DNA from: a virus
Strand: one strand, 5' to 3'
Virus record (IMG/VR): IMGVR_UViG_3300045988_154277
DNA: 64,000 nt
Part shown: positions 1,611-57,400 of the stretch, piece after piece
Numbering within the stretch: position 1 is the first letter of the stretch
How the letters are laid out: each line of letters starts with the position of its first letter
Program-made: the position numbers and the translations under genes
Notes under the pieces: generated by a model
The model's database searches: none
The model's input: the letters and a program-made list of their open reading frames with translations, nothing else
What the model was told of the DNA's origin: nothing

Positions 1611-1731
1611 CTAATCAAAACTAGAAACAGGTAACGACAAACAGGTTCGTTAACACAACAAGTGATCAAGGAGATCTGATCGTAGTACCATCGTTCTCCT
1701 TGGTCGAACATTAACATAAAGGAATTCACTT

Positions 1732-4700
1732 ATGGGTTCTATTATCAATCCCAACGAGAAACAAACTTGGGCTATTACAGCTCAAGGTATCACCGTTATG
1801 GGCAAGACGAAGTCTTACAACACCTACGAAGAGATGCTTCGTAGCTCCGATCCTGGTCTGATCAACTACGTAACGGATGCTTCTGGGGATCCCACTGTTC
1901 ACAGTGGATTCGCTGTGTATCGGTATTCGAACGGTATCTTCACCAAAATCTACGAAGGTGAAATGATGGATCCGGATCTCGGTATGGTCTTCGAATGGAG
2001 TAAGATCGTCAATGGCCCCACCTCTGCCCCTGCCGATATCGACGCTGCTGTTGAAAAAACACAGCCGATGGAGATCCAGAAAGATGACACCGGGCGGATC
2101 GTTGGTCTCGCGGTCAACGGCATCCTGCTCGCCACGGAAGAGCAGATCACAGAACTGGAAGGCAAGACCGCTGGTGCTCTGCATTTCAAGGGTGTTGTCG
2201 AGAACAAGGAAGCTCTTCCCACGGAAGGCAATGAACAAGGTGATGTCTACGTCGACAAAGAAGGCAAGGAATACGTCTATGTCGATGGGACTGGGTTCGA
2301 AGAGTTCGGTTCGATCACCGATCTGACCAACTACTACACCAAGGATGAGATCACCTCGATCCTGGCAACTTACCTTCCTCTGACCAATGGAGTTTTCTCT
2401 GGTCTGGTCTATATGGAAGAAGCGGCTACATCCAATGCTGCGCAGAACATCGTGGTTCTCGGCTCCAACGCCATCATGAACCGCATCTCGATCGGACAGC
2501 AGGATCCCACCGGGTTCGATGCTGACAAGCTTTACAGCTTCAAGTATTTCGAAGCTGGTCCGCTCGGTATGAAGGGATTCGTGAACTATCTGAAGTCCAA
2601 GGGCGTGGATGATGCGATCACCTCTGCGATCCGTACCAACGGTGTCCAGATCCAGGATACTGGCAAGAAGATCTCCGACATCCCGTTCTACCAGACTTTC
2701 CAGAACGCCAACGACGATGCTCCTCGCAAGACCATCCAGCTGGCGAACCACGATACTATCTCTGGTATCAAGACGGATGGAACGGGTGTGAATATCGCCA
2801 TGGTCAGTAAGTGGGATAAAGTGGATCTCGGATCCGCGAGTATCCAGCTCAACCTGAACAGCTCCGAACGTCCGACGCTCAACGATAAAGATCCGATCGT
2901 GATTCAGTCTGACCTTGCAGACTATGCGAAGTTCGAACCCAACACCTCCGATCCGAATCGTCCTGATCGCAAAGTTCTCACGCTGAAGAACGATGATAAC
3001 ATCTGTGGTTACACCACGGCTGGTGGCTCTGTCAACCTTGTTATGGTGAGCAAATGGGATGTTGCGGATTTCGGATCCACCTCTGTCCACATGAACCTCA
3101 ACAGCAAAGATGCTGTTACGGTCAATGACAAAGATACCGTCCTTACGGATGCCAACTACAGTGAGTTCATCACGATCCCGTCTCTTGAAGGACTGGCGAC
3201 GGAAGAGTCCGTTCAAGCTCAGATCGCTCAGGAAGCGGAAGATCGTCAGAACGCGGACAGCTCCCTGACAGCCGCTATCGGTCTGAAGCAGAATGCCCTT
3301 ACTGTGGATGGTCAGAAACTTGTTCTCACCGACGATGTTCTGGAACTCGGTGCGGATGTTGTTGTGATGCAGAATCCCTGGGATCCGAACCTCCCGGATC
3401 GTCGTCACATCGTTCTGAAGAACCATGACAGTATCGTTGGAACGATGACCACCGGCAACAATGGTACTCTGATCATGATGTCCAAGTGGGACAAAGTTGA
3501 CATCGGTACCACCCAGGCTCAGATGAACCTCAACTCTCCGAATGGTGTAATCCAGGTCAACGACGATGCGGTTGTCGTTACCTCTGCCAATATCAGTGAA
3601 TACGCTCCGGCTACCGATCTGAGTGGTTATTACACCAAAGCAGAAGTGGATGCCAAAGTTGCTGGTGTTCTGTCCTACAAAGGCACCGTTGCCACTGTGG
3701 AAGAACTGGATGCGATCGAAGCTCCTGCTGTCGGTGATGTCTATCACGTCACTGCCGACAAGGGTGAGTACGCGTTTAACGGAACGAAGTGGGAATCTCT
3801 TGGTTCCGAAGTGGATCTCAGCGTTTATGCGAAGACTGCCGATGTCACCACCGCGATCGACGCTGCTAAGACGGAAGTTGCTGCTTCTGTGACGGCAGAA
3901 GAGGAAGCCCGTTCTGTTGCGGATACCGCCCTGGACAACCGTGTCACTGGACTCCAGAGTGATCTGGTTGGTAAAGTCGACAAGGTGGAAGGTAAAAGTC
4001 TCGTTGATGACGCAGAGATCGCTCGTCTCGCTGAAGTCGAGAACTACGACGACACTGACGTTCGCGGACTGATCACCAATGTGACTACAAGTCTCGAAGG
4101 TAAGGTTGACAAGGTTGCCGGTAAAAGCCTGGTCGATGATGCTGAAATTGCACGTCTGGCGACAGTCAACAACTACGATGATACTGTGCTGTCTACGAAG
4201 GTTGCAAGTGCAGAAGGCAATGTGATCTCGATCAGTGATCGTCTCGCCTCTCTGGAAGCGCAGATCGTCTCTCTGAAACAGACCGATGTTGCTGCTGTGA
4301 CCTCTTCTGCGGATCTTGCTCAGGCTGACAAAGATCTGATCATCACGATCGCGGAACCGATCACCGGCACCACGACTGTGGAAGGTAAGAGCATCGAGGT
4401 CAAACAGCTGACCACGAGCAATGCAACCACCGTCTTCAAGACGGAAGGCGATGTCACGATGAAGAACCTCACCACAACCGGTGATCTTCCGAAGGCGACA
4501 GCGAACGCCCAGATTCGTATCGTCAGTGGCGACTATGTTCGTGTCACAGACAGCGCCATCGATCAGACTGGTTACAACGCGATCGAAATCGGTCTTGGAA
4601 CCGGATCTGGTCCGAGTGCCACGAAGTCGATCGTGATCGACAATGTGAAGTTCAACTCTGCACTGACGAACAACGCGATCAGCATCTTCGCTACGGAAGA

Positions 4701-5097
4701 CGGTTCTGTGATCACGATCTCGAACTGCACCTTCACGAAGTGCTCGAACCCGGTTCGTCTGAGCAACGCCACAGGTGGCAAGGTCACCATCAACCTGGTC
4801 AACTGTGAGTTCACCGAATGGGATAGCTCCAACGACTGGGCTGGTCTCCTGATCATGCAGGATTACACCAGTAAGTCTGTGGAGGCGATCCAGGCGAACA
4901 ACCTGTTCGGACCGGATAAGGTCACGATCAACGTGATCAACTGCACGCATGCCGGCGAGAAGATCGTCGCTCCTGCGAACATCGCAGATGTGTGTGGAAC
5001 GAAGAACGCTGCGACGCAGCTCTTCTACATCTGGAGTAACGAAGAAGGATTCGTCACTTATGACGCAGAGCGTTATCCTGTGATTAACATCCAGTAA
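1732..5097 (+). CDS. Large tail fibre / receptor-binding protein with internal tandem repeats and a C-terminal pectin-lyase-like beta-helix
   Basis: The RBS GGAAT lies before the ATG. There are three roughly 55-aa repeats (PNRPDRKVLTLKNDDNI...MVSKWD..D.G....MNLNS) and two roughly 38-aa repeats (GKVDKV.GKSLVDDAEIARLA.V.NYDDT). The C-terminal NxxxS/T-rich segment (NCTFTKCSNPVRLSNATGGKVTINLVNCEFTEW) is typical of a parallel beta-helix. Confidence 0.6.
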   Translation: MGSIINPNEKQTWAITAQGITVMGKTKSYNTYEEMLRSSDPGLINYVTDASGDPTVHSGFAVYRYSNGIFTKIYEGEMMDPDLGMVFEWSKIVNGPTSAPADIDAAVEKTQPMEIQKDDTGRIVGLAVNGILLATEEQITELEGKTAGALHFKGVVENKEALPTEGNEQGDVYVDKEGKEYVYVDGTGFEEFGSITDLTNYYTKDEITSILATYLPLTNGVFSGLVYMEEAATSNAAQNIVVLGSNAIMNRISIGQQDPTGFDADKLYSFKYFEAGPLGMKGFVNYLKSKGVDDAITSAIRTNGVQIQDTGKKISDIPFYQTFQNANDDAPRKTIQLANHDTISGIKTDGTGVNIAMVSKWDKVDLGSASIQLNLNSSERPTLNDKDPIVIQSDLADYAKFEPNTSDPNRPDRKVLTLKNDDNICGYTTAGGSVNLVMVSKWDVADFGSTSVHMNLNSKDAVTVNDKDTVLTDANYSEFITIPSLEGLATEESVQAQIAQEAEDRQNADSSLTAAIGLKQNALTVDGQKLVLTDDVLELGADVVVMQNPWDPNLPDRRHIVLKNHDSIVGTMTTGNNGTLIMMSKWDKVDIGTTQAQMNLNSPNGVIQVNDDAVVVTSANISEYAPATDLSGYYTKAEVDAKVAGVLSYKGTVATVEELDAIEAPAVGDVYHVTADKGEYAFNGTKWESLGSEVDLSVYAKTADVTTAIDAAKTEVAASVTAEEEARSVADTALDNRVTGLQSDLVGKVDKVEGKSLVDDAEIARLAEVENYDDTDVRGLITNVTTSLEGKVDKVAGKSLVDDAEIARLATVNNYDDTVLSTKVASAEGNVISISDRLASLEAQIVSLKQTDVAAVTSSADLAQADKDLIITIAEPITGTTTVEGKSIEVKQLTTSNATTVFKTEGDVTMKNLTTTGDLPKATANAQIRIVSGDYVRVTDSAIDQTGYNAIEIGLGTGSGPSATKSIVIDNVKFNSALTNNAISIFATEDGSVITISNCTFTKCSNPVRLSNATGGKVTINLVNCEFTEWDSSNDWAGLLIMQDYTSKSVEAIQANNLFGPDKVTINVINCTHAGEKIVAPANIADVCGTKNAATQLFYIWSNEEGFVTYDAERYPVINIQ

Positions 5098-5106
5098 CGT
5101 ATCGAT

Positions 5107-5138
5107 AAGAACAGGGAGAGACATCTCTCCCTGTTCTT
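5107..5138 (+). terminator. Rho-independent terminator (AAGAACAGGGAGAG-acat-CTCTCCCTGTTCTT followed by CTCTATTC)
   Basis: Perfect 14-bp stem followed by a T-rich run, directly after the fibre gene stop. Confidence 0.6.
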
Positions 5139-5166
5139 CTCTATTCAACGCTAACCAGGAGGTTCT

Positions 5167-5930: not shown

Positions 5931-7052
5931 TTATACTTTCTTCAGATCTGGATCGATCTTGATATACCAACAACCTTTCTTGAATGGACTCCCGTCGAAT
6001 TCCGTCATTTGTTGGATCACGATCGTTTTTGTACGATCGTTCGATTTGAAATAAATCCTCGGAGGATCTTGATCTACTTTGTCATACTCCGAAAGACTCA
6101 TGTGGATATGGTTACGGATGATATCGAAATCTGTCACTTCCAGATACCATCTTTTCCAATCATCTTGAACGATCGTTTTATACCCTTTGGCTAAGCCTAA
6201 TCCAAGAGATGTGCACACCTGTACAGACTCTCCATTTTCAGACCATCTGGAGAGGATTTGTTCTTGTGTTAGCGTGCATGTTTTAGGCTTTTCTGGACAT
6301 TCACACTTGTTGCACAGATCTTTCGTGTCAGAGTCGATATGTGCCAATGTCTTAATATCACTGAATGCATGATCCAATAGCCAACAGATCATATCACCGT
6401 GACAGAGGGGTCCATTCTCTGTACCGTCAGCACACCAACATCCAAGTTTCACAGGTCCATCATCGATCGCACTTTTCTTATCTTTTAACTTCACCACTTC
6501 TCGCAACATTTCAACGTTCTTCAAAAGATAATCGGTGAACATGGCGATCACTTTGTAACGATCGTGGTTCGCATCGATCTTGAAGGGATTACCCAAGATT
6601 CCTACATACGAGTGATACGGACGTCCGATGTAGATATCGAACTCTTCCTTATTGACGTGCACGACACGACCAGGATGTGGTTTCACCGTATCTTCTTCGG
6701 TAACGTCCACAACCACAACATTACGTCCACGTTTACGACTCTCAGCGATCATGTGTTGTGTTCCAGGACTCTTACCGTCCCAGAAAGCGATCACATGATC
6801 ACTATTCCGGATCATCTCGATATTGCGGATCATACCAGCTTCGTGACCGAATCGATCCCACTGCGCTTCGTACACTTCACAAGGATGTCCGTTCATTTCA
6901 GCATACACTTCTGCCAACATATCAACACCTCTGGCACCACCACTGACGATGATCGCATCCTTCGGGATATACTGTTTCAGATAGGTATACACGATGTAGT
7001 AGTTGTTCATCGACCTACTACCAACAACGCAAAAACGTGTTAAGTTACTCAT
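5931..7052 (-). CDS. Fusion protein: N-terminal SLOG/DprA-like Rossmann domain (DUF2493-type, GGARGxD) plus C-terminal DUF4326-like Cys/His domain
   Basis: IIVSGGARGVDMLAE matches the DprA/SLOG signature. GNPF...LGCWCADGTENGPLCHGDMI matches the DUF4326 GNPF/CWC..CHGD pattern. RBS AAAGGAG. Confidence 0.5.
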   Translation of the reverse strand: MSNLTRFCVVGSRSMNNYYIVYTYLKQYIPKDAIIVSGGARGVDMLAEVYAEMNGHPCEVYEAQWDRFGHEAGMIRNIEMIRNSDHVIAFWDGKSPGTQHMIAESRKRGRNVVVVDVTEEDTVKPHPGRVVHVNKEEFDIYIGRPYHSYVGILGNPFKIDANHDRYKVIAMFTDYLLKNVEMLREVVKLKDKKSAIDDGPVKLGCWCADGTENGPLCHGDMICWLLDHAFSDIKTLAHIDSDTKDLCNKCECPEKPKTCTLTQEQILSRWSENGESVQVCTSLGLGLAKGYKTIVQDDWKRWYLEVTDFDIIRNHIHMSLSEYDKVDQDPPRIYFKSNDRTKTIVIQQMTEFDGSPFKKGCWYIKIDPDLKKV

Positions 7053-7201: not shown

Positions 7202-7738
7202 ATGGAAGAACGTCCGTTCACTCTGGAAGAATCCGAACTGATGAAACGTCTGGTTACCGCTCTGATGATACATGCACCTTACATCCAACCAAGATCTTTG
7301 TTCTTGTCCTTGGATGAGATGATCTTCGTTTGGAGGAAGCTGGATGGGAACAAACGGATCGAACATCCGATCTGGTTGTCGAAAACGGTGTATGTACGGA
7401 TGCCTGAAGATGATACGAACATCAAGGAACACATCATTCGGATGGTTCCTCATTTGGTCAGACAATTCTACGAGCAGATGGACTACAAAGAACATCAGTT
7501 CACTCACACGATCAATCACATCCTCTACAAGGATCGACTCGGTAAATACCGAGAACAATATAGGAAGTCCATTTCATTTTACAAAACCTTGTTGAATGCG
7601 TACCGTGCGATCAAGGAGTATGCGAAATGCTTCAAAGGAGATCTCCAAACCCAGTATGAGTTAAGGAGAGACCTTACTATGAAGTACGGGAAGGGATTTG
7701 AGTTAGCATTAGAGATCTACGTGCGTTACATGATATAA
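7202..7738 (+). CDS. Hypothetical protein
   Basis: ORF with RBS AAAGGAGAAA, bounded by a terminator. Confidence 0.45.
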   Translation: MEERPFTLEESELMKRLVTALMIHAPYIQPRSLFLSLDEMIFVWRKLDGNKRIEHPIWLSKTVYVRMPEDDTNIKEHIIRMVPHLVRQFYEQMDYKEHQFTHTINHILYKDRLGKYREQYRKSISFYKTLLNAYRAIKEYAKCFKGDLQTQYELRRDLTMKYGKGFELALEIYVRYMI

Positions 7739-7744
7739 CAAGAT

Positions 7745-7777
7745 GGATACTTGGTGAGATCACACTCACCAAGTATC
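7745..7777. terminator. Bidirectional terminator hairpin (GGATACTTGGTGAG-atcac-ACTCACCAAGTATCC) between convergent genes
   Basis: Perfect 14-bp inverted repeat between the stops at 7738 (+) and 7785 (-). Confidence 0.55.
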
Positions 7778-7784
7778 CATATGT

Positions 7785-8222
7785 TCACTTCTTATCAGAT
7801 TCTTCTGATTTGACTCCGTAGATCTTTTCAGCAAGCGTCGCACTCTGCTCGGTAAGATTCGGAGAGGTCAGGATATCTTTCACATATCCATTCGACTGAG
7901 GTCCTGTCTTCATCTTCAGCACGATATCACCTTTGGCTTCTGCCTGAACATGTCCAGACGGTTGTGTTGTATCTTGTGTATCAGTCCGAGAAGATGCGAG
8001 CTGAGAATTAGCGTTAGTTGTAGTGTTGGTTTGTGTCTCTATCGTCACATTCTCTTTCACAACAACATTGGTAACATCCCACTGTCCAAGACGAAATGTT
8101 GGGATATAGCTACTACCATCCCAAGCGATCTCGACTCCAGTTCCACGAGAGTTGGACACAACGTTGTGTCCACACCCTATCACCAGGGTGAGCAATACAC
8201 TCAATAAGAATATTCTGTACAT
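7785..8222 (-). CDS. Lipoprotein (signal peptide plus lipobox LVIGC)
   Basis: N-terminus MYRIFLLSVLLTLVIGCG. RBS AAGGAG. Last gene of the patatin operon. Confidence 0.55.
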   Translation of the reverse strand: MYRIFLLSVLLTLVIGCGHNVVSNSRGTGVEIAWDGSSYIPTFRLGQWDVTNVVVKENVTIETQTNTTTNANSQLASSRTDTQDTTQPSGHVQAEAKGDIVLKMKTGPQSNGYVKDILTSPNLTEQSATLAEKIYGVKSEESDKK

Positions 8223-8225
8223 AGA

Positions 8226-8423
8226 TCACTCCTTGGGATGCTTCTGTTGTTCACGGATCGCATCCGCTTGTTCTTGTGTGAGGTATCCTTTTTCCACTTG
8301 TTCGATCAGCCATTTCTCATCGTTGCTCTGATGGTAGTCGTTCTCCATAGAACAACCGGCTGTCCCGATCATCAGGTAACCAGACGCCAAACAAGCACAG
8401 ACGAATAAGCGTATCGTTCTCAT
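8226..8423 (-). CDS. Small lipoprotein (lipobox GTAGC)
   Basis: N-terminus MRTIRLFVCACLASGYLMIGTAGCS. RBS AAAGGA. Overlaps the patatin gene stop by 4 nt. Confidence 0.5.
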   Translation of the reverse strand: MRTIRLFVCACLASGYLMIGTAGCSMENDYHQSNDEKWLIEQVEKGYLTQEQADAIREQQKHPKE

Positions 8424-9220
8424 TGTAACAATCCTTTCGTAAGTTCATAACAGTAATCTCTCAGTTGGAACTTCGGAGACCAGTTCAGAAGACCCCCTCC
8501 GAATCCATCTTCCGGTTGGATCAGAGTGACGTTCGGTTCATCGAAGTACTTTTGCCGTTCCAACTCTTTGTACTCACGGTTCATCACCCCATCCAACAGT
8601 TCCAGAAGTCCAGTGATCAACCCATCTTCTGTTGTATCGTTGTACACGGTCTTCGGACAGAGGAATACGAAGACGTGATCGTACTGACAGAGATTGTTCT
8701 TGGCTGGAGCTGGGATGTTATCAAGAACACCACCGTCTCCATACAGGATGCTGTCGATCATCACTGGTTTGAACAGGAACGGGATAGAGGTTGCTGCCAG
8801 AGCGGATGCTGGAGTAGCTGGCATATGGATCGACTCCCAGTCGATCATACGAGTCAGAGAGGTCATCACTCGCAAACTTGCCAGTCCAGTCATCTCCTGT
8901 TCCAACAGCTTCTTTACTCCATCATTGTCGATCATGTGTCTTGCACAAGAACACATGGTTGATAATGCTCCAGGAACACAGACGTGGAAGAACTCACTTA
9001 CCTTCCTGGTCTGCATCAGTTCTCTGAACCAAGCACTCTCATGTCCACTGTAATAGAGTGAAGAGAACAGAGTAGAACCGGAGCTGGTATGTGCTTGTCC
9101 TGGGATCATCCCATACTCTTCGAATGCTCGCATCACGCCAGTCAAGCACTCCACACTCATCATCCCACCGCCCTGACCAACCAACAGAACCTGGTTGTTC
9201 ATACTTTCAAAGATATTCAT
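8420..9220 (-). CDS. Patatin-like phospholipase
   Basis: Gly-rich oxyanion box LVGQGGGMMS, a Ser-containing GSTL region, and a catalytic Asp block YGDGGVLDNIP (DGGxxxNxP). I moved the start to M11, which has AGGAGG 6 nt upstream. Confidence 0.6.
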   Translation of the reverse strand: MNIFESMNNQVLLVGQGGGMMSVECLTGVMRAFEEYGMIPGQAHTSSGSTLFSSLYYSGHESAWFRELMQTRKVSEFFHVCVPGALSTMCSCARHMIDNDGVKKLLEQEMTGLASLRVMTSLTRMIDWESIHMPATPASALAATSIPFLFKPVMIDSILYGDGGVLDNIPAPAKNNLCQYDHVFVFLCPKTVYNDTTEDGLITGLLELLDGVMNREYKELERQKYFDEPNVTLIQPEDGFGGGLLNWSPKFQLRDYCYELTKGLLQ

Positions 9221-9279
9221 CTCAAACCTCCTATACATAAGGTTACACACTCATATCATTACAACTAGGAGGTATCAAC

Positions 9280-10146
9280 ATGGCTATTCAAATCTGTAAA
9301 CAATGCTGGGCCAACCCTTGTATCTGTGGAAATCAATTTAAAGATTCCACTACGGATCACATCCTTCTCCTGATGGAAGGATTGACCAAGATCCTGAAAC
9401 AGAGAGATGTTCCAATCGACATCAAAGTGGATGGCAAAGATATCAAAGAGCATCTTCTCAGCAAGAACCGTGGGTTGGGTTATACCAATGGAAGTACCCT
9501 TCTCTCTATCCTGGAGGAACAGAAGTTCCGGATCCCGAAAGTCTATCGAGATTACATCCAGTCGAAGACTTTGGCTTCGGAAGTATACTTCGATTTGAAG
9601 AACTCCTTATCTATCCCCCACAGGACAGCTTTTGCGGTCGTCTTGTACACAACTTCCCTTGTGTATACGGACAATTCTTTGCAGTATTTCTTCTACAACC
9701 TGTTGAACGACTCAACGTGCATCTTCTGCAATCCGAAGATGAAAGAGTTGATCCGCTATACAGATCCACATCCTGAGTTCTGCAAGAACCTCTATACGGC
9801 AACCCACCAGATCCACATCATCGTTCAAGAGAAACTGAAGAAAGAAGTCGACCTCGAATGGCTGATCGCATGGGGGATCTTAACCCGTATCGATACGTTC
9901 TTCAGAGGTGATCTTAACATCAAGTTCCAAGCGATGAAAGAGATCGTTGAGCTGATCGGTGGAGGACATAACTTCACGATCAATGATGTCTTCATGCAAC
10001 CGAAGGATATGGTCGATGTGATGGATCATCTCACCAGGAGAGATTACGAATGGTGTGAGATCGAAGATGATGATACTCTCCGTTACTTCTTCAACAAAGA
10101 GCAGATCAAACAGCCGTTCTTCGGTATGCTACCAGCACATGAATAA
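9280..10146 (+). CDS. Hypothetical protein with an N-terminal Cys cluster (CKQCWANPCIC)
   Basis: ORF with RBS AGGAGG, followed by a bidirectional terminator. Confidence 0.45.
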   Translation: MAIQICKQCWANPCICGNQFKDSTTDHILLLMEGLTKILKQRDVPIDIKVDGKDIKEHLLSKNRGLGYTNGSTLLSILEEQKFRIPKVYRDYIQSKTLASEVYFDLKNSLSIPHRTAFAVVLYTTSLVYTDNSLQYFFYNLLNDSTCIFCNPKMKELIRYTDPHPEFCKNLYTATHQIHIIVQEKLKKEVDLEWLIAWGILTRIDTFFRGDLNIKFQAMKEIVELIGGGHNFTINDVFMQPKDMVDVMDHLTRRDYEWCEIEDDDTLRYFFNKEQIKQPFFGMLPAHE

Positions 10147-10148
10147 AA

Positions 10149-10186
10149 CTATAGATACAGGGATGGTGCCATCCCTGTATCTATAG
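10149..10186. terminator. Bidirectional terminator (CTATAGATACAGGGATGG-tg-CCATCCCTGTATCTATAG)
   Basis: 18-bp perfect inverted repeat between convergent stops at 10146 and 10196. Confidence 0.6.
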
Positions 10187-11399: not shown

Positions 11400-12458
11400 T
11401 CAGATGATCAACCCTGCGGCAGTATCATTGCCAGATCCTGCCAGATCTTTGTTGCTGTGATCCTTCTGGATCGTGTTTTCTTGATAACGTTCTCTGGTTT
11501 CGTTCAGGAAGTTGATAAGCTCCTGAGGAACCGTCTTACCGATCGCCGAGAAGAAACGTTTCTCTTCAGCGATACCGACACAGGTGAATGCGGTGAGTAC
11601 ATCCGGAGTCAAACCGGTATCGTTCACCACCATGCAGGCGTGAAGAACATCTCCAACACCGATCACACTGTCATCTTCTCCTGCCAAGTCTTCAGCCTGA
11701 TCGCTATTGGTAGCGGTGACAGACAAAAGATAAAGTCCTGCAGGGCAGTTCATTGTGGTAGGACGCAGATAGTGCATCTTGTCGTTGTAGTCGATCTCCT
11801 CGATCTCTTTGGAGGTGAGAAGGTCGATCATTTCGATCGTTCTCTGAGCCGCTGTCTTATTGACAGCGAATCGTCCAACACCATGGTTGTTGAAAAGCAT
11901 CAATGGGAAATAATGTCCGTTCTTCTCAGCAGAGGATGCGAACGAACGAATCGTATTGATACTGTTGATGCAATCTCTCTCAGAGGAAGCATCCACAACA
12001 CCAACCAGGACTACACAACGATTGCTGTTGCGAAGGATCCTGTGCGCAAGCAGAGGGGCGATCACAGAACCAGATCCACCTGCCAAACTGAACAGGATGA
12101 ATGTGATGTCAGATGCTTGCTTGAACAGATCCGGATGGGTATCGATATACTTCTGGATCGCATCGAGGTTCTTACCACGGTCTTTCCCGGAGCCAAGCTC
12201 ACCGATCGCATCGAACGGGATCTCCTGTGGGATCCCACTGACGTTGGATGCCGAGGTATCGATCACTCGATAGTCGATCTTCGCATCGAACTGTGGGTTG
12301 CATTTGAGGATCGCTTTGAGGATGTTCTGACCACATCCTCCAGCAGCGATTACCTGAACGGTTGGTTGTTTTACCGTGGGGTTCATCACCTTCTGTTCGT
12401 CCTTGAGATCGGACAGATCAGAGAGGTTCGGAGCAGCATACGAAGGTTTCTGCGCCAT
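11400..12458 (-). CDS. Tubulin/FtsZ-like GTPase (PhuZ/TubZ-like)
   Basis: T1-like loop VIAAGGCGQNILK and T4-like loop SLAGGSGSV (compare with GGGTG[ST]G). Size is about 350 aa. RBS AAGGAG. Confidence 0.5.
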   Translation of the reverse strand: MAQKPSYAAPNLSDLSDLKDEQKVMNPTVKQPTVQVIAAGGCGQNILKAILKCNPQFDAKIDYRVIDTSASNVSGIPQEIPFDAIGELGSGKDRGKNLDAIQKYIDTHPDLFKQASDITFILFSLAGGSGSVIAPLLAHRILRNSNRCVVLVGVVDASSERDCINSINTIRSFASSAEKNGHYFPLMLFNNHGVGRFAVNKTAAQRTIEMIDLLTSKEIEEIDYNDKMHYLRPTTMNCPAGLYLLSVTATNSDQAEDLAGEDDSVIGVGDVLHACMVVNDTGLTPDVLTAFTCVGIAEEKRFFSAIGKTVPQELINFLNETRERYQENTIQKDHSNKDLAGSGNDTAAGLII

Positions 12459-12513
12459 ATCATTCTCCTTATGTTAGTTGACGAGTTGAGACATATCATC
12501 TATACGCGTAGCA

Positions 12514-12541
12514 TAAACATATATTCCAGAGAGGAGCATAC
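12514..12541. terminator. Hairpin TTCCAGAGAGG-agcata-CCTCTCTGGAA downstream of paralog A
   Basis: 11-bp perfect stem. A degenerate CGTATAGAT box follows on the minus strand. Confidence 0.45.
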
Positions 12542-12558
12542 CTCTCTGGAATACAACG

Positions 12559-13926
12559 TTATTTGGATGTTTGTCTCTTATACTCAGCTTCTACAGCTTG
12601 GATGATCTTCTTAGCCCAGGCTCGATCTGCATTTGTGATAACATACTTGTTAGCAGCATTTCTGGCTCTAGATTCTTGCACACGATCTGGGTAAGCAACA
12701 CCACTTTTGTTAGAGTCAAATGGAAGATCATGTTGACTATCCCATAGATGTTTACATTCATGCACGACAGTGTGTATGAACCAATCTTCTTTCGAAGTAT
12801 TATAATTGGATACGAATGCATAAGTCCACCTAGCTATCCACGATAGCAAGTATGTTGCATTTATCCAAAGATTATAACCTTTTAAAGTATTATCGGTGTA
12901 ACACCATCCACCAACTGTCGATATCGTTTCATCTACTGGGTTAGCCCATGCGGATGGCGATACATTTGTTACGACAACAACACCTAGATTCAATGATCCA
13001 CCAAAATAAGACTCCAATCTATTCCTTGTGCCTAAATCAAAAGGGAACATCATGTGGATATGGATCTTTGATCCAGAATAGATCAGGTGTAAGTTTTTCA
13101 AATGATCAGCCAATATGTTTAGTTGATCATACACACGATCTATAACTGTAAACAAAAAGCTTACATACTCTTTGACAGACGTGATATCTTGTATGTTACA
13201 ACCAACACCGTGTAGTATGGGAGCTATGGTTTTACCAAAATCAATTAAGTTTGTAACACATACGGATTCAAACTCGTTACGGTTGTTTTCAGTTAGAGAA
13301 GTAAACCGATCAATATCCTGTCTAAACGATGTCAATATGGATGTGCATTTATCTAAGATATCCAATCTTACATGAAGGTATTCTTGTACCAATTCAGCGT
13401 GTGCTTTTACTCGAGCTCTAGTATACACAAACTCACCGTCTTCATCACTTAACAACCGTTTTAATTGAGCAGTAATATCCTCTATATCGTGAAGTACATC
13501 TCGCTCTGTTATAAATCGAGTCCTTATTGGATTGTCGTGTATTTTACCCAATGTCATTTCTATTTTGTTTAAGTTCTGTTTAAGGTATATTTCCCCATTC
13601 GGATCCGATGTAGAAAACATGGCTGTTAACTTAACTTTGATCAATTGATACGTGCGTATTAACCAAGATAACATTTTCTTGAGAATGTCCTTTAACCACG
13701 CAACGAACTGCTGAATAGCGTTCTTAGCCGCATCCATCAGGTTTTCACAGGCAAACATGTGTTCTATTACGGCTAGGTCTTGATTTGAACACGTTAACAA
13801 CGTAACAGCATTCTCATATGCATCTAATCCAGATTGAATCATATTAAACAACAACGCCTTATCAGCTAGTTGTGTTTTATACTCGTTGTATGCTAAACAA
13901 TCGTGGTATATCGTATCTACGTTCAT
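12559..13926 (-). CDS. HExxH paralog family, large member A (putative zinc-metallopeptidase-like)
   Basis: VVHECKHLWDSQHD and a C-terminal DRAWAKKIIQAVEAEYKRQ stretch, both shared with 21707.., 27944.. and 26192... Conserved N-terminal AYENA...WLKD. I moved the start to the Met that has GGAGA upstream. Confidence 0.55.
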   Translation of the reverse strand: MNVDTIYHDCLAYNEYKTQLADKALLFNMIQSGLDAYENAVTLLTCSNQDLAVIEHMFACENLMDAAKNAIQQFVAWLKDILKKMLSWLIRTYQLIKVKLTAMFSTSDPNGEIYLKQNLNKIEMTLGKIHDNPIRTRFITERDVLHDIEDITAQLKRLLSDEDGEFVYTRARVKAHAELVQEYLHVRLDILDKCTSILTSFRQDIDRFTSLTENNRNEFESVCVTNLIDFGKTIAPILHGVGCNIQDITSVKEYVSFLFTVIDRVYDQLNILADHLKNLHLIYSGSKIHIHMMFPFDLGTRNRLESYFGGSLNLGVVVVTNVSPSAWANPVDETISTVGGWCYTDNTLKGYNLWINATYLLSWIARWTYAFVSNYNTSKEDWFIHTVVHECKHLWDSQHDLPFDSNKSGVAYPDRVQESRARNAANKYVITNADRAWAKKIIQAVEAEYKRQTSK

Positions 13927-16823: not shown

Positions 16824-17591
16824 TTATTGAGGTTGGATGCTGTTCAACCGATCAGCCAGTCCTTTACCGAAGAGGATAACACACTGTTGATCTTCCATCA
16901 ACTGGTCGTATTCCGTCTTGGTAAGGAGACCGCACGATGTGAACTGCATGTAGATCTGCTTGAACAGATCCAATTGCTGAGTGATGCCAGCAACACCATC
17001 GAGATGTGCTCCAGCAGCGAACACGCTCGGAGGAGAGATCTCACAGAACATGTTGTCCGAGATCGTCTTCTCACATGGAAGGGTAAGGAAGAGTGCACCT
17101 CCAGTGCAGAGGATATAAGGACCGTGGATCCTGGTCCTCTTGCACAATGCAACATCTTTTAGTTTCTTCTGAAGGATGTTGTACATCCCAACCGCGAAGA
17201 ACTCATCGATGTAAGAAGGCGCCCAGATCTCCAAGTAATCGTTGGATGTTACCTGATCCAGCAACAAGATGAACTCGTTCATCATCTCATTACCGATCAT
17301 AGGGTGGCACATGTTCACCGTGTTCAGATAGAACGTCCATTTCACAACGGAAGCATCGTCTTCCTCGACTACCAGCCTTTCGAATGGGAGATTGCGACAT
17401 GTCGTTCTTGGTATATTCTGACCTTCTACTGGTTGATCACAGTTTTGATTCGGAACCATAGCTTCTGCACTATAGGATTCCAAACTCGACTGAGGGAAGA
17501 CTTTGGTATCATCCTGGGCATCCACAACCAGAGTAGCACCAGGAAGTGCAGACAACTTATCTTCCGTACGCTTTACGAAATCAAGCTTCAT
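16824..17591 (-). CDS. Hypothetical protein (last gene of the protease operon)
   Basis: I moved the start to the internal Met, which is preceded by GGAGGTG and overlaps the ClpP stop. Confidence 0.45.
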   Translation of the reverse strand: MKLDFVKRTEDKLSALPGATLVVDAQDDTKVFPQSSLESYSAEAMVPNQNCDQPVEGQNIPRTTCRNLPFERLVVEEDDASVVKWTFYLNTVNMCHPMIGNEMMNEFILLLDQVTSNDYLEIWAPSYIDEFFAVGMYNILQKKLKDVALCKRTRIHGPYILCTGGALFLTLPCEKTISDNMFCEISPPSVFAAGAHLDGVAGITQQLDLFKQIYMQFTSCGLLTKTEYDQLMEDQQCVILFGKGLADRLNSIQPQ

Positions 17592-18219
17592 ACCGCACCT
17601 CCATAACTCTCTGTTTTTCTGATGGAGTATCTTCCATAGCAGCCAACCGTTCATTCACGGTGACACCACTCAGATATACATCTTTCCTGTGGTTTACAAC
17701 ATTCTCAATGTCTTCCACAGTGAGGATCCCTCTGGTGATCCGTGTCAGAAGTCCTGTGAAGTAATTGCAAAGACCCGTTGTCTGGTCTTTCACATCCATC
17801 GATTTACCGAAGTATCCGCCTGATGGCATATGGAACATCAGTGTAGCCATGGGAGAGATCCTCCTCACCTTGCCACCGCACCAGATCACAGCAGCGATAG
17901 ATGCACACATCCCGATCGCATCGGTGATGATCTGTCCTTTGGAGTTCTGGATCGCATGGAAGATGTCGATACCAGTTTCCACCCAACCTCCATTCGAGCA
18001 AAGATAGATCGTCATCTCATCTGTCTCACGAAGGTTCATGATCGTGTGAATCAGTTCCAAATAAGGATCCGGCATGATCACTTCTTGATCCAAGAACACG
18101 GTGTACTTGCAAGAACCGTCTTCCATAGTCTTGCCGCAGATCTTACCGCTCTGTCCTGGTTTCAAAGACAGGAAAGTAGCGATCCTGGCGTTGTTCTCTT
18201 GTGGTTGTTCCATACTCAC
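17581..18219 (-). CDS. ClpP-family (S14) serine protease; possible prohead maturation protease
   Basis: IYLCSNGGWVETG...GMCASIAAVIWCGG...MFHMPSGG aligns with ClpP IYLYINSPGGVITAG...GQAASMGAFLL...MIHQPLGG (Ser and His sites). Confidence 0.75.
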   Translation of the reverse strand: MSMEQPQENNARIATFLSLKPGQSGKICGKTMEDGSCKYTVFLDQEVIMPDPYLELIHTIMNLRETDEMTIYLCSNGGWVETGIDIFHAIQNSKGQIITDAIGMCASIAAVIWCGGKVRRISPMATLMFHMPSGGYFGKSMDVKDQTTGLCNYFTGLLTRITRGILTVEDIENVVNHRKDVYLSGVTVNERLAAMEDTPSEKQRVMEVRYEA

Positions 18220-19007
18220 CTCCCGAACAGCGTGTGGAATACCTGATGGGAATGACCCTGGTCGTCAACAACGGCACCGTTCTTCGCATCCAGGATCCCA
18301 ACTACCGTTCTGGCGATAGAGACCTTATCCACTTCCAGGATATCCAGAAGCTGCTGATCATGGATCGACTCACAACCGAGTGCGTTGGCGATCTCAGGAA
18401 GATGATCTTTCGGATCGAACTCGTAGGAGAGACCCTCCAGACCTTTCACGTAGACTTTGGAAGCCTCCGCATATCCAGGGCAGTCCACGGCATCGATCGT
18501 CACAAGAGCGTTCACTCGTTGTTTGATCACATTGCCTTCCTGACCGATCTTGGCAACCAGAGACCGCAACGAGAACGCTGCGTTCTTCAGAGGATCTTCC
18601 AGACGATCCTTCAGATACGGACCATAAGGTCCAGAGCATTGGATATCACCATAGACCACAACATGTCCCTGTTCAGTAGGTTGTCCAGTCCACACACGAT
18701 GGATCGTGTGAGATTCGTTCTTGGAGTCGATGAGCATCACCCGGGGAAGATCTTTGTCTTCCCAAATCATCGGATGTCCCCACTCTCCAGTGAGCTGTCC
18801 TGCTTTCAGGCGTCTCACGAAAGGAGAGTACGGGTTGGTCAGGGCATCGACCATGCTGGTAACCTCATAGTCTTTGAGGTTACGGGATACTTTACCCAAC
18901 ACCATCAAGGGAATGTCATGGTAAACCCCGTTCTTATCAGGTTTCAGGCTCTTCTGGTTCCCTTCCAGGAGAAGAGCTGAACTGATATCAAAAGCTATCG
19001 TGTTCAT
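18216..19007 (-). CDS. Hypothetical protein upstream of ClpP; possibly prohead/scaffold-associated
   Basis: Overlaps the ClpP start by 4 nt. Has a GEWGHP segment and an SLRSL segment. Confidence 0.35.
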   Translation of the reverse strand: MNTIAFDISSALLLEGNQKSLKPDKNGVYHDIPLMVLGKVSRNLKDYEVTSMVDALTNPYSPFVRRLKAGQLTGEWGHPMIWEDKDLPRVMLIDSKNESHTIHRVWTGQPTEQGHVVVYGDIQCSGPYGPYLKDRLEDPLKNAAFSLRSLVAKIGQEGNVIKQRVNALVTIDAVDCPGYAEASKVYVKGLEGLSYEFDPKDHLPEIANALGCESIHDQQLLDILEVDKVSIARTVVGILDAKNGAVVDDQGHSHQVFHTLFGR

Positions 19008-39133: not shown

Positions 39134-39361
39134 TTATCGAAGCAGAACTTTTACACGATCTGCAATCACACACATCGTGTCAGTGATCACAGTCGTGAGT
39201 AACGCTGTCGCTTTTGGCATGAACAGCCAGATACCCCAGGTACAGAACCACAAAGCGTTTTCTGTTGTGTAGGCTTTGAAGAGTCCGAACAGTGGGATGT
39301 ATCCGTAGAAGAAGACGGAGAGTGCGATGACGACGACAGTGTCAGTTGTTTTGGTGTTCAT
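39134..39361 (-). CDS. Small two-TM membrane protein; holin-like candidate
   Basis: 75 aa with two hydrophobic helices (VVVIALSVFFYGYIPLFGLF and WFCTWGIWLF...ALLTTVI). RBS AAGGAAGGAG. Confidence 0.4.
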   Translation of the reverse strand: MNTKTTDTVVVIALSVFFYGYIPLFGLFKAYTTENALWFCTWGIWLFMPKATALLTTVITDTMCVIADRVKVLLR

Positions 39362-39495
39362 AATAGAACTCCTTCCTTTTAATTGTTTACGATTACAAAC
39401 ATTATTTGAATAAAGCACGAGTGACATAGCCTATGGCTAGAAGAGTGTTCGCATCACTCAACTAGCAAACAAATTGATTTGGTTAACAGCTCAGT

Positions 39496-46902: not shown

Positions 46903-47097
46903 CTACAGCGGCACGACAGTTACGTCACCAAGGAGATCCTGTTTTGTAACGGGAGTCTTGGCTAATGTATCCATCGACAACTTGTTCTCAGACATAGCTT
47001 TTGCTATACCTTTAAGAAACACAGTGGTTTGCGGTTTCTGAACGAGAGTTGGAATTGGAAGGGTGATTCCATTTCTAACGATAGTTCTTGTATACAT
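46903..47097 (-). CDS. Small 64-aa protein, tandem paralog 1
   Basis: RBS AAAGGAGGTG. About 50% identical to the 47204..47395 product (for example TPVTKQDLLGD against TPVTAQDLLVN). Confidence 0.5.
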   Translation of the reverse strand: MYTRTIVRNGITLPIPTLVQKPQTTVFLKGIAKAMSENKLSMDTLAKTPVTKQDLLGDVTVVPL

Positions 47098-47203: not shown

Positions 47204-47395
47204 TCAACCGAGTGGTGTGACAATGGCATTCACCAAGAGGTCCTGTGCTGTGACAGGAGTCCTAGCCAATTGATCCATCGTCGTCCGATTTTCTTTTAGA
47301 AGAGTTGCTGTCTTCTTCAAGAATGGTGTGACACGTGATTTCTGAGTAATCAGAGTGGGTACACGCACACGGGTCGAATTTGTATAGTGATTCAT
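47204..47395 (-). CDS. Small 63-aa protein, tandem paralog 2
   Basis: RBS AAAGGAGGTCC. The upstream region is duplicated too. Confidence 0.5.
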   Translation of the reverse strand: MNHYTNSTRVRVPTLITQKSRVTPFLKKTATLLKENRTTMDQLARTPVTAQDLLVNAIVTPLG

Positions 47396-54469: not shown

Positions 54470-57400
54470 TTAGAGGTTGGTATCGAGCATCATCGATTGA
54501 AGGAGTTTACTTCCCACTACAGATGCTCGAGTACGACTATTCGGATCGATCGTATCCAGATCAGCTTCTCCGTTCTCTTCCAACATCCTGCGGAACTCGC
54601 TATACCCGTGGATGTTACCACCACGGATGTTCACCAATTCCTGCATCGTCTTGCTGAGTCCACGAGCAGCGAGGATCTGGATCTCCGGGTTCGTGATGGA
54701 ACAAGCGCGACTGTCACCAGTAACTTGCCCAGTCAACCCATCGATCGTCCGATCATTATCCGGAACTGAAATCTTCTCATCCAAGAACTGTTGTTGTCTT
54801 CGGATGGGGAGTTTCACGAACATATACTTGTTGTCGGTCAGATACTTACGACCAGTTGCACGGTCATACATCCAAACACGTTGGAAGAGATCCAACCCGA
54901 TCATATCACAAGCTTTCAGAAGATCTTCGTTCTGCAAGTTCACGATCATGTTGGGAGCGACGATGTGGAGCTGCCACTTGCCTTCCTTCATGTAGTTCAT
55001 GAACTGATCAAACTCTTTGTCATTCATCTGTCCTATGATCTGACGATACCGTTTGGAGTTCAGTCCGGACGGTTCCATCGTATCACAGAGCTTACAGATG
55101 TAGTCCAAGATCTCCTTCTTTTTCTGAGCGATCTTGGATGATGCGGTTGATGCTTCCATAGAAGAACCTAATTGTTCTGTTGACGATTGAGACTCCGAAT
55201 CAAAAGAAGTACATTCCAATGATTCGACAGCTGGTCCGAACTGTTTTACCATACTTGGATCAAACTTAGTTTCCCAAGTCACAGTGATCTTCTGTTTCGA
55301 AGTGTACTTCAATGGTTCATCATCCACATATCGACACTCACGTTTCGTATCTCCACCACCAAACGTTTTTAACTTAGACTTTACATCATCAGTCAGTTTG
55401 ATAGAGTAAAGATACCCAGTGGATTCACCATGTGTTTCTTTAAACGTCTTTGCGTTGTGATACACAGTGATGTGTTTTGGAATTGTATTAAGTTTGGAGA
55501 CGTCTTGTTTCCAAACATCATAACTCCAATGAATAGAACGATAACCGTGGTTCTCTTCTCCATACAAATCTTGTTTGTTTATGATGAAGATAGAAGCGAT
55601 CCCTTTCAGAGGAGAAAGGAAGATTGACTTCTTATATTGAGAAGCTCGTCCATAACCTTTCAGTTCTGTCAGATCGTTTGGAGATCCATGATAGAGTTCA
55701 TCACCCCATGTTTTCATCTGAGCAGAAGTTAGCTTTTCAGCTGACATCTTCAGCACATCAGTCTTCAAGACCATCAAGTACATCTTCTCTCTAGTTTCTA
55801 CAATCTTGAATCCCATAGACTCATACAGATGACACACCTTCTGGTTCGTCTTGTACGCACAGATGTAGATCTCAGTTGTGATTGGGTTGTGTTTCAGCAC
55901 ATATTGAATCGTAGCAGATACACTCTGCTTACCATAGCCCTTTCCCTGATACTTGGGGAAGATACCGAGATTAAACAAATCCACGGTGTTGTCTTTATAG
56001 AACATCACACCGATCGATCCGATCACCTCTGATCCATGCATCAACAAGAAGAACTGACGTCCTTTCTTCAGATCAGCTTTGACATCACTCGGAGTCCATT
56101 TCTTATAGTCATCTGGATCGTCGTCAATCAGATCAGCTGTATCTGTCACATACTTGACTTCTACCTGATTGGATAGATCCAGTTCCTTCAAAGTAATGGA
56201 ACTAGCTGGTAACGTCAGAGATTCAAGACTTATAGGTAACACTTCCATAGACACATGGACAACATCGCCTTCCAATTCCAGACTGGCTAAAGACTTAGAC
56301 ATCCTTTTTGGTTTCGGGGCTTTCCCTCCAGTCAGTTTTGGATTATGAACGTATTGTACATCCACATTGGTGTAAGTATTTGGTTGTATCCCATTAATAC
56401 TCAAATGATTTGGATCACCAGTGTATCTTAGGATAGTCTTCTTGTCTGATACTGTTTCCGAAAGAAAGTCTTGTGTACAGCGGTTTGTTGGAACTTTGTA
56501 AACATCGACCGACACAGTCTGCGTTGGCTTACAACGATATCTCCAATTAGGTTTTCCAATATCGTTGTATTCAACGATGATCAGAGAGTTGTGAAGATTG
56601 ACCTGTTTTGGTATAATGTTAAACAGAACAGTTCCACGTTTCATATTCCAAGTTGCAGTTTTAGCACCAAGCGCAACAGCATAATTGCTATCTGCACACA
56701 CTAGAATTCTATTCCCTACCTTAGGAAGATCCGTTCCACCTGCTGGAATACCAACGTAAACAGGTTTCCCCTTAACGTCAACCACTTCAACTTCGCCAGC
56801 CTGGACATTAGCTGCCTTTTCCTCTGACACCACGCAATCCTCAGGGATATCCAACGACTCAAAACCACGGAAGAACGCTTTCACGTTCTCACGTTCTTTC
56901 TTATCAACGATCTGATCGAACTGGTCTCCGGACCACTGCATGATATCCTCCATACGGGTTGAGAGGTTCGCTTCCTTGCCGGTATCAAGAACCAGACTGA
57001 TGATTTCACAATCTGTATCCTGACCGATACGGTGCACACGGTCAGATGCCTGCTGATACTCGATCGATCTCCAAGGTTTGTTCAGGAAAATCACTGTGTT
57101 GGCAGCCGTCAAGGTTGCTCCAGTACTCAACATCTTCAAAGATGCGATCAATGGATTCAACGACTGATCCTCTTGGAACCGTTTTACCGTGTTAGTCAGT
57201 TCAGAAGCTGTTTTACCGTATACAGCAAGTGGAGAATACCCTTCCTTCTGGAAGTAGTTATAAGCCAACTCGATCGTATCCACATAAGACGTGAATACAA
57301 CAGTCTTCTTCATGGCATCATCCACATACTGCTTCAGATCAGCAGCTTGCATCATCTCAGAGGTCATCTGCATACGGAGATGTGTCAATAAGGTACCGAT

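Follow-up and report, generated by a model that had tools for sequence, protein, structure and literature searches.

The cassette and its boundaries

The window analysed here, a 64,000-nucleotide stretch of viral DNA (IMG/VR record IMGVR_UViG_3300045988_154277), carries at positions 7785–9220 three adjacent minus-strand genes, which are a real, self-contained accessory cassette of an uncultured, PhuZ-encoding human-gut jumbo phage of ≈280 kb. The first gene (8420–9220) encodes a patatin-like lipid acyl hydrolase of 266 residues without signal peptide or transmembrane segment, the second (8226–8423) a small lipoprotein of 65 residues, with a signal peptide at residues 1–23 and the lipobox T-A-G-C24, and the third (7785–8222) a second lipoprotein of 145 residues with the lipobox V-I-G-C17. 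A preliminary description of the window had proposed exactly this minus-strand operon, and its patatin, 65-residue, and 145-residue lipoprotein genes are all found at these coordinates, as is the 4-nt overlap it had claimed, in which the start of the 65-residue gene lies within the patatin stop (ATGA, 8420–8423). It was silent on three points that are central to what follows: the nucleophile motif, the missing export signal of the lipase, and the truncated state of the 145-residue protein.

The patatin gene starts at the ATG at 9220, with a Shine–Dalgarno sequence, AGGAGG, 6 nt upstream (9227–9232, minus strand). A longer reading from the GTG at 9250 is not supported, as 30 homologs align from an MNIF/MDIF start. 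The third gene begins 3 nt beyond the stop of the small-lipoprotein gene.

Both ends of the cassette are clearly delimited. Upstream, a divergent intergenic region of 59 bp (9221–9279), presumed to contain the promoter, separates it from a plus-strand gene at 9280–10146; a sigma-70 scan gave no excess over shuffles, and no promoter consensus emerged. Downstream, a perfect 16-bp inverted repeat with a 6-nt loop (7743–7780) lies between the convergent ends of the cassette and of the gene at 7202–7738, directly after the third-gene stop codon. The hairpin has a folding energy of −30.4 kcal/mol (z = −5.5), a stability that no sequence in 200 shuffles attained. An equivalent hairpin is found 3′ of the cassette in eight related loci (L004, L006, L007, L017, L018, L177, L178, and L179), with stem sequences that differ between clades. 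Of the bidirectional terminator proposed earlier, then, the hairpin between convergent genes stands; its T-run is weak, so we infer the termination itself, and regard a bidirectional transcription stop as likely. A second perfect palindromic hairpin, with an 18-bp stem, is located at 10149–10186 and together with the one at 7743–7780 (16-bp stem) marks transcription-unit ends; similar perfect hairpins occur near other gene boundaries of the window, for example at 5100–5160 and 12460–12560.

The lipase is modelled as a patatin fold

The sequence of the 266-residue protein is by itself marginal for a patatin, because its score against Pfam PF01734 (26.8 bits) falls just below the cut-off of 27.7 bits and the match is confined to residues 140–171, the Asp block; most homologs carry a precomputed PF01734 match. 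The glycine loop G17–G19 (9164–9172) reads G-Q-G-G-G-M-M, the nucleophile Ser47 (codon 9080–9082) sits in T-S-S47-G-S (9074–9088), and Asp162 lies within DGGVLDNIP (8711–8737); the GGG oxyanion box and the DGGxxxNxP Asp block reported in the preliminary description are thus both present.

The predicted structure settles the question. An AlphaFold (AF2) model, built on an alignment of 30 homologs, has a predicted local distance difference test (pLDDT) score of 89.1 and a predicted template modelling (pTM) score of 0.89. When it is compared with the PDB by Foldseek, each of the 31 matches at E ≤ 0.001 is a lipase of the patatin fold. PlpD ranks first (E 1.3e-14, template modelling (TM) scores 0.75/0.79), and next come CapV, CapE, potato patatin, VipD, iPLA2-β, ExoU, and cPLA2. 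As modelled, the protein has the patatin α/β fold, and the lipase fold on which the preliminary description had staked its assignment is found together with a conserved Ser–Asp dyad. In the model, strand 7–15 is followed by the glycine loop, Ser47 lies between strand 39–45 and helix 48–56 in a strand–turn–helix nucleophile elbow, and Asp162 is the end of strand 158–162.

The family alignment points the same way. A family profile finds PlpD at E 5.9e-10, with Ser47 aligned to the nucleophile of PlpD and VipD and Asp162 to their D-G-G block, and residues G17, G19, S47, G48, D162, G163, and G164 are invariant in the 30 homologs, down to 42% identity. Two motifs deviate from consensus: the elbow in the homologs is [T/S/A]-S-S-G-[S/G], not G-x-S-x-G, with Ser47 invariant throughout, and the glycine loop is without the basic residue of G-G-x-[K/R]-G, with G17 and G19 invariant. 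The elbow of cPLA2, G-L-S-G-S, is comparable to the T-S-S-G-S of the lipase. We regard the protein as a lipid acyl hydrolase with an intact Ser47–Asp162 dyad that presumably is active as a hydrolase.

Because the lipase has neither a signal peptide nor a hydrophobic segment that could be transmembrane (maximum 19-residue hydropathy 1.44), and because the 30 aligned homologs begin straight at the first strand and the glycine loop, it is predicted to stay in the cytoplasm.

The nearest structural relatives are the passenger of PlpD, the Pseudomonas aeruginosa type Vd patatin-like lipase (PDB 5fya/5fqu), and the bacterial RssA/NTE-type family of PF01734, which share with the window lipase the compact fold, a glycine-rich loop, the Ser–Asp dyad, and the D-G-G motif. 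Unlike these, the window lipase, which is 20–22% identical to them, has no secretion or translocator domain and a T-S-S-G-S elbow, is encoded by a phage, and is the product of a gene coupled to a lipoprotein gene. The lipase family comprises 54 clusters, all of 159–274 residues and all metagenomic. Bacterial patatins retrieved by a pattern-seeded genome scan are ≈20–30% identical and mostly from Bacteroidota; the scan yielded no phage contig within a named genome and hence no clue to the host. Patatin folds among predicted viral structures belong almost entirely to giant eukaryotic viruses, nudiviruses, and ascoviruses, and hardly any patatin-type lipase is known from tailed phages. Searches of PHROGs, NCBIfam, and PADLOC were uninformative for the cassette proteins, all three, and an NCBIfam match of the lipase to VpdC was dismissed, as it spans only the shared DGG block.

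The small lipoprotein has a variable leader and a conserved mature part

The lipobox cysteine of the small lipoprotein, Cys24, is encoded at 8352–8354, and the mature part (Cys24–Glu65) has 42 residues and contains the helical motif WLIEQVEKGYLTQEQADAIRE. Both cassette lipoproteins pass the PROSITE-type (PS51257) lipobox rule, which asks for a basic n-region, a hydrophobic core, and a lipobox ending in [A/G/S]-C at positions 15–35, with Cys24 and Cys17, respectively. The pattern exceeds chance expectation: 5 of the 182 ATG-initiated open reading frames (ORFs) of at least 50 residues in the window pass, three of them inside larger genes, and the other two are the adjacent cassette pair. In ten lineages the small-lipoprotein cysteine and the preceding [G/S] are invariant, and three homologs with proline at −3 fail the strict rule. 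The residue after the lipobox cysteine is never aspartate in either lipoprotein. The earlier assignment of both downstream products as lipoproteins is therefore upheld, with a lipobox cysteine that is invariant in both families; lipidation of the two is probable, and the envelope anchoring that had been claimed with it stands as a prediction from that invariant cysteine.

In both lipoproteins the signal peptide drifts and the mature part is kept. The signal peptide of the small lipoprotein is 22–42% identical; its mature part is 78–100% identical where the lipase is 60–90% identical, and so is no less conserved than the enzyme. On alignment evidence, the drifting leader and the conserved mature part are the signature of a leader that is cleaved and of a constrained, binding-competent domain.

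An exhaustive HMMER search with the small lipoprotein retrieves ≈22 similar small lipoproteins and a set of repeat proteins, whose repeats are Pfam DUF2680 and which are true members of that family. The window protein itself gives no match to DUF2680 (PF10925) at E up to 0.1, and the homolog P0166 scores 14.9 bits, below the threshold of 25. The DUF2680-like motif of the small lipoprotein points to no function.

The third gene is a shortened form of a two-anchor protein

The lipobox cysteine of the third protein, Cys17 (codon 8172–8174), is followed by glycine, and the window protein has the invariant C-G-H and a beta-rich domain with the conserved motif GPQxNGYVKDILTS. A profile search finds 67 relatives, of which we examined 36, and 25 of these have both the lipobox cysteine and a C-terminal transmembrane helix. 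In the long form (226–311 residues), the invariant C-[G/S]-H is joined by a beta-rich domain that contains GPQxNEGY-K-[D/E]-V-L-T-S, by a linker of low complexity, and by the C-terminal transmembrane helix; the short forms (145–164 residues), which are without the helix, belong to the window clade and to a handful of others. Beyond its signal peptide, the window protein is free of hydrophobic segments. Because most relatives keep the C-terminal helix, we read the window gene as a clean C-terminal truncation of a protein that, judging from its family, is normally anchored at both ends. An AF2 model of the 145-residue form, built on the 36-sequence alignment, is poor (pLDDT 56, pTM 0.27) and has four long strands and two short helices.

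The long form, in which a lipobox at the N-terminus and a transmembrane helix at the C-terminus flank a beta-rich middle, has the topology of unimolecular spanins such as T1 gp11. The window copy was considered as a unimolecular spanin and rejected: the lipobox is present, but the C-terminal transmembrane helix is absent, and there are no holin or endolysin neighbours.

In the clade whose lipase is 48–50% identical to that of the window, a fourth small gene (L004:6816–6929, L018:5206–5379) overlaps the end of the gene for the long, transmembrane form. In L004 it encodes a 37-residue peptide with a single transmembrane segment, MRNDYSEHQVEAFIKTLIVGGVLGFALAVLCQMFGWL, and in L018 the ORF is listed as 57 residues; the product might be membrane-active, as a holin-like peptide or otherwise.

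Conserved linkage, purifying selection, and a recoded sister clade

Ratios of nonsynonymous to synonymous substitution rates (dN/dS), computed against loci at 60–90% identity, are 0.08–0.23 for the lipase, 0.10–0.15 for the small lipoprotein, and 0.05–0.14 for the short third gene, values which show that all three genes are kept as proteins under purifying selection. The small-lipoprotein gene lies directly 3′ of the lipase gene in all ten distinct related loci in which the downstream gene was read. The junction is a start/stop overlap of 4–23 nt (GTGA in L179) or a 2-nt gap (L178), and it is kept as lipase identity falls from 90% to 46% and across both genetic codes. Lipase identity to the window is ≈60% in L006 and L007, 48–50% in L004 and L018, and 46–47% in L005, L008, and L019–L022. 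The third gene follows the pair in the window clade, L004, L006, and L018 (in the last three as the full-length two-anchor form), and in L005 it is convergent, on the opposite strand. Because the lipase and the small lipoprotein are coupled in every clade examined and the third gene is less faithful, the conserved core of the cassette is the lipase–lipoprotein pair, which the third protein often accompanies but can be spared from.

The sister clade formed by L005, L008, and L019–L022 reads TAG as glutamine. Its patatin genes have in-frame TAG codons, six to seven each in L008 and L019–L022 and three in L005, and its lipoprotein genes have one to two; every real gene in the recoded loci has them (for example, 30–32 in a 624-residue gene), so that these counts come without a TAG-free contrast set. 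The neighbours in this clade are the heavily recoded 624-residue ORF and tail-fibre-like ORFs of 513–514 residues, structural by sight rather than by family test. Recoded stops are reported to be over-represented in structural and lysis genes, and recoded genes to require a phage suppressor tRNA (PMC10879173); the in-frame TAG codons, together with this need for a suppressor, argue against immediate-early expression of the cassette.

In the non-recoded clades, the cassette adjoins the gene for PhuZ and a SLOG/DUF4326 gene. The latter (5931–7052, minus strand) encodes in the window a 373-residue protein with a SLOG/YspA-like domain (PF10686, DprA-like) and DUF4326, and it is found beside the cassette in all non-recoded relatives.

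The phage and its host

The window derives from a jumbo phage of the human gut that is uncultured and akin to the nucleus-forming group. A PhuZ-type tubulin is encoded at 11400–12458 (minus strand; PHROG 1e-33) and shares 25–30% identity with PhuZ from jumbo phages of Klebsiella, Serratia, and Erwinia; further genes of the window code for a phiKZ-type tail sheath, a protease of head maturation, virion proteins, and a piece of RNA-polymerase beta. Chimallin was not identified within the 64-kb window, nor were any tRNA genes found in it. Proteins identical to all three cassette products are found on contigs of 276–282 kb from many samples, and one locus with an identical lipase is a 279-kb human-gut metagenome contig, ENA UONW01000014; the contig that carries L004 is 331 kb long. 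DNA and protein searches of 50,697 deposited phage genomes gave no match to the locus, to the lipase (E up to 5), or to the long-form third protein. The cassette is specific to uncultured PhuZ-encoding gut jumbo phages.

Most genes, in the window as in each of the related clades, are preceded by strong Shine–Dalgarno sequences, which argues against a Bacteroidota host. The DUF2680 family is found mainly in Bacillota. Recoded gut phages have been described as infecting Bacteroidota or Bacillota (PMC10879173). From the use of Shine–Dalgarno sequences, the hosts of recoded phages, and the recurrence of the small-lipoprotein motif in DUF2680 repeat proteins, a Bacillota host, possibly without an outer membrane, is plausible; any reading that involves an outer membrane or spanins is conditional on the host.

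A possible late-acting envelope module

Although their genes are coupled, the lipase and the lipoproteins are predicted to end up on different sides of the cytoplasmic membrane. In broad terms, the cassette most likely serves to attack the host envelope or to remodel it, and the roles put forward in the preliminary description (lysis assistance, envelope remodelling at entry or exit, superinfection exclusion, toxic effector) stay candidates. The explanation we tentatively prefer, while holding it to be possible rather than probable, is that the cassette is a late-acting envelope-disruption or exit module whose lipase is kept apart from its partner by the membrane. The lipase would accumulate in the cytoplasm, separated by the cytoplasmic membrane from the exported small lipoprotein. 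At the end of infection, a breach of that membrane would let it reach the membrane's outer face or the periplasm, where the small lipoprotein would target or activate it, and the hydrolysis of membrane phospholipid would help the envelope to fall apart; the third protein might act as an envelope tether or destabiliser. Late timing, an interaction of the lipase with the lipoprotein, and any role in lysis are what we infer here, on several grounds: the patatin fold and dyad of the model, the lack of a signal on the lipase, the kept gene coupling, the conserved mature lipoprotein, and the spanin-like long form of the third protein. The TAG codons in the recoded lipase and lipoprotein genes and the tail-fibre-like neighbours of that clade also count for a late module.

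A further argument comes by analogy. Wolbachia phage WO has a putative patatin-based lytic cassette, which consists of a patatin, a small membrane protein, and a protein that bears a transmembrane segment at its C-terminus, and which has been proposed, in a lytic role that is itself putative, to replace or assist the canonical lysis proteins (PMC9203015). The likeness, a patatin-like phospholipase next to a small protein associated with the membrane and to a third one that has a C-terminal transmembrane segment, would favour an envelope-disrupting role here as well. The WO cassette differs in lying next to the tail module of a temperate phage, in a host reported to have no detectable peptidoglycan (PMC9203015), and no sequence relationship was detected between the window cassette and anything in the phage collection. 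The CBASS (cyclic-oligonucleotide-based antiphage signalling system) effectors CapV and CapE, with ExoU and VipD, share the patatin fold with the window lipase (TM 0.6–0.72) and illustrate the principle of a patatin that is inactive until it meets a specific activator; the window lipase, in comparison with CapV and CapE, is shorter (266 residues against ≈293–344 in the matched chains) and has no cyclase or nucleotide-sensing partner. Mycobacteriophage LysB is a lipolytic ester hydrolase whose part in lysis is to attack the host envelope at its lipid layer; it has a cutinase-type α/β hydrolase fold, is encoded in a lysis cassette beside LysA and a holin, and targets the mycolyl–arabinogalactan link. 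Both LysB and the window lipase are phage-encoded, and the two might share the idea of attacking a lipid envelope; their folds and gene settings differ.

A good deal weighs against a late envelope module. No holin, endolysin, or canonical spanin is found beside the cassette, in the window or in the related loci L001–L008, L017–L022, and L177–L181, and Pfam and PHROG scans of 44 ORFs of the window show no endolysin-like family and no recognisable spanin. The holin-like gene that the preliminary description had set apart from the cassette (39134–39427, minus strand, 97 residues) does have a hydrophobic stretch; it has no Pfam match, and no endolysin or spanin was found near it. The neighbours in the non-recoded clades, PhuZ and SLOG/DUF4326, are not lysis genes. 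phiKZ has a standard cassette of holin, endolysin, and i-/o-spanin, plus a cytoplasmic regulator (PMC12894885), so that a lipase is unnecessary in cultured relatives. A fully active cytoplasmic lipase would be dangerous unless regulated. As to timing, k-mer enrichment in 55 upstream regions yielded Shine–Dalgarno words alone, with GATATGT and TATGCT weakly raised and no evidence of timing. The third protein is a further difficulty: its transmembrane helix is dispensable, given short forms that are stable under purifying selection; L007 keeps only the C-terminal half of the gene, without the lipoprotein half; and in L008 and L019–L022 the third gene is missing from beside the cassette. With growing distance the linkage is lost: in L180 the third gene is ≈6 kb from a distant patatin gene that is followed by no small lipoprotein, and in L181 there is no patatin gene within 6 kb of it. 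The third family, for its part, shows that a topology like that of unimolecular spanins can lose either anchor yet persist.

Alternative explanations

Superinfection exclusion by an effector and its immunity protein is rather unlikely, and it is the rival that fares best. The virion would deliver the lipase to the outer face of the membrane at entry, or the lipase would attack membranes associated with incoming phages, and the lipoproteins exported by a cell already infected would neutralise incoming copies or block the receptor or injection. Known parallels are the type VI secretion system (T6SS) Tle lipases with their periplasmic Tli lipoproteins, T4 gp5 lysozyme with Spackle, and T5 Llp. 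A signal-less enzyme coupled to a small exported protein resembles the layout of toxin/immunity pairs that act in the periplasm, and the very high conservation of the mature small lipoprotein would fit a tight binding interface. The cassette also behaves as an autonomous unit: it brings a divergent upstream region and a terminator hairpin of its own and has different genomic places in different clades, one of which, in the recoded clade, is beside tail-fibre-like genes, often the site of genes for receptor-blocking lipoproteins. The non-recoded clades, by contrast, have it away from tail genes; there is no sign that the lipase is packaged, as no fusion to a structural protein was recognised and the virion matches among the PHROG hits of the window lie elsewhere; and PADLOC is without a match.

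Remodelling of membranes within the cytoplasm is unlikely. Here the lipase would work on the inner face of the cytoplasmic membrane, on internal vesicles such as the early lipid vesicle of nucleus-forming phages (that of the phage itself or of a superinfecting one), or in the release of fatty acids, and the lipoproteins would merely be co-expressed. This agrees with the predicted cytoplasmic location of the lipase, and with a phage that encodes PhuZ and phiKZ-type proteins and conserves synteny with PhuZ in its non-recoded clades. In infections by nucleus-forming phages a lipid vesicle surrounds the injected DNA, and phospholipase effectors of the host Juk systems are turned on that vesicle (PMC13282480). 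The absence of a lipase homolog from the deposited genomes searched, which include those of cultured nucleus-forming phages, however, means that the lipase is not part of shared machinery, and chimallin was not identified in the window. The TAG codons of the recoded clade speak against immediate-early synthesis, and the conserved coupling to a lipoprotein is left unexplained.

No more probable than remodelling is a specific two-compartment phospholipase, in which a signal-less patatin would be made stoichiometrically with its activating or targeting lipoprotein and be destructive only after the membrane is breached. Equally novel would be a phage-encoded lipase that destroys the entry vesicles of superinfecting nucleus-forming phages. 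If a membrane-gated lipase is indeed what the cassette encodes, the envelope would be disrupted, or other phages excluded, by a new mechanism; a lipase route would join the final lysis steps already known (spanins, disruptin, and LysB), and the pair would be a compact candidate antibacterial enzyme with its activator. Even with no function assigned to it, the cassette marks this phage clade cleanly. The enzyme family, the lipoproteins, and the spanin-like topologies are already known; what is new is their conserved combination in a prevalent clade of uncultured gut jumbo phages.

We consider it very unlikely that the two lipoproteins are spanin equivalents, a small outer-membrane lipoprotein and a protein like a unimolecular spanin, with the lipase an unrelated neighbour. 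The majority form of the third protein, with its lipobox and C-terminal helix, speaks for this, as do the small lipoprotein just upstream of it and the lack of aspartate after either lipobox cysteine. In two-component spanins (lambda Rz/Rz1; phiKZ gp141/gp141.1, PMC12894885), as here, the gene for a small lipoprotein overlaps the end of the gene before it. The overlapped gene of the window, however, encodes a soluble enzyme and not the type-II coiled-coil membrane protein of i-spanin/o-spanin pairs (PMC12894885), there is no adjacent holin or endolysin, and the third protein of the window lacks the helix and is under purifying selection all the same. The invariable coupling is that of the lipase with the small lipoprotein, not that of the two lipoproteins. 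The third gene of L007 is without its lipoprotein half, L008 and L019–L022 lack the gene beside the cassette, and the host may be monoderm (PMC10879173).

Equally improbable is that in vivo the patatin-fold protein does not act as a phospholipase: it would be an esterase or acyltransferase acting on lipoproteins, lipid A, the lipid anchors of teichoic acids, or signalling lipids, or else a non-catalytic scaffold. Patatin-fold enzymes have a broad acyl-ester specificity, and the deviant nucleophile elbow, the glycine loop without its usual basic residue, and a Pfam score that is under the curated cut-off and covers only the Asp block would all suit such a role; against it, Ser47, Gly48, and Asp162-Gly-Gly are invariant over 30 sequences to 42% identity, Ser47 is at the modelled elbow, and cPLA2 has a comparable one. 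Two further assignments were rejected outright: a canonical o-spanin/i-spanin pair, as the overlapped upstream gene encodes a soluble patatin-fold enzyme without a transmembrane segment, and a CBASS or other known defence patatin effector, as there is no PADLOC match at E up to 0.1 and no partner cyclase, and the neighbours are phage genes.

Other features of the window

Elsewhere in the window, the 1717-residue ORF at 54470–59623 (minus strand) is an unusual fusion of an SNF2-type helicase, an acetyltransferase-like segment, and a C-terminal piece of the RNA polymerase beta subunit, with matches to phrog_62, phrog_1249, and phrog_3233. Two stop-free ORFs of 1140 and 1121 residues, at 1726–5148 (minus strand) and 1732–5097 (plus strand), are exactly antisense to each other; the plus-strand ORF matches phrog_31410 and is called in related contigs. 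In the overlapping pair of genes at 17581–18219 and 18216–19007 (both minus strand), that of a ClpP-like ATP-dependent protease homolog directly precedes that of the phiKZ-type head maturation protease. Finally, two neighbouring genes of ≈64 residues (46903–47097 and 47204–47395, both minus strand) share a near-identical upstream motif, CCTAAGGTAACG..GGTG.AAAGGAGGT, which suggests that they may be tandem paralogs with a shared regulatory or structured leader.

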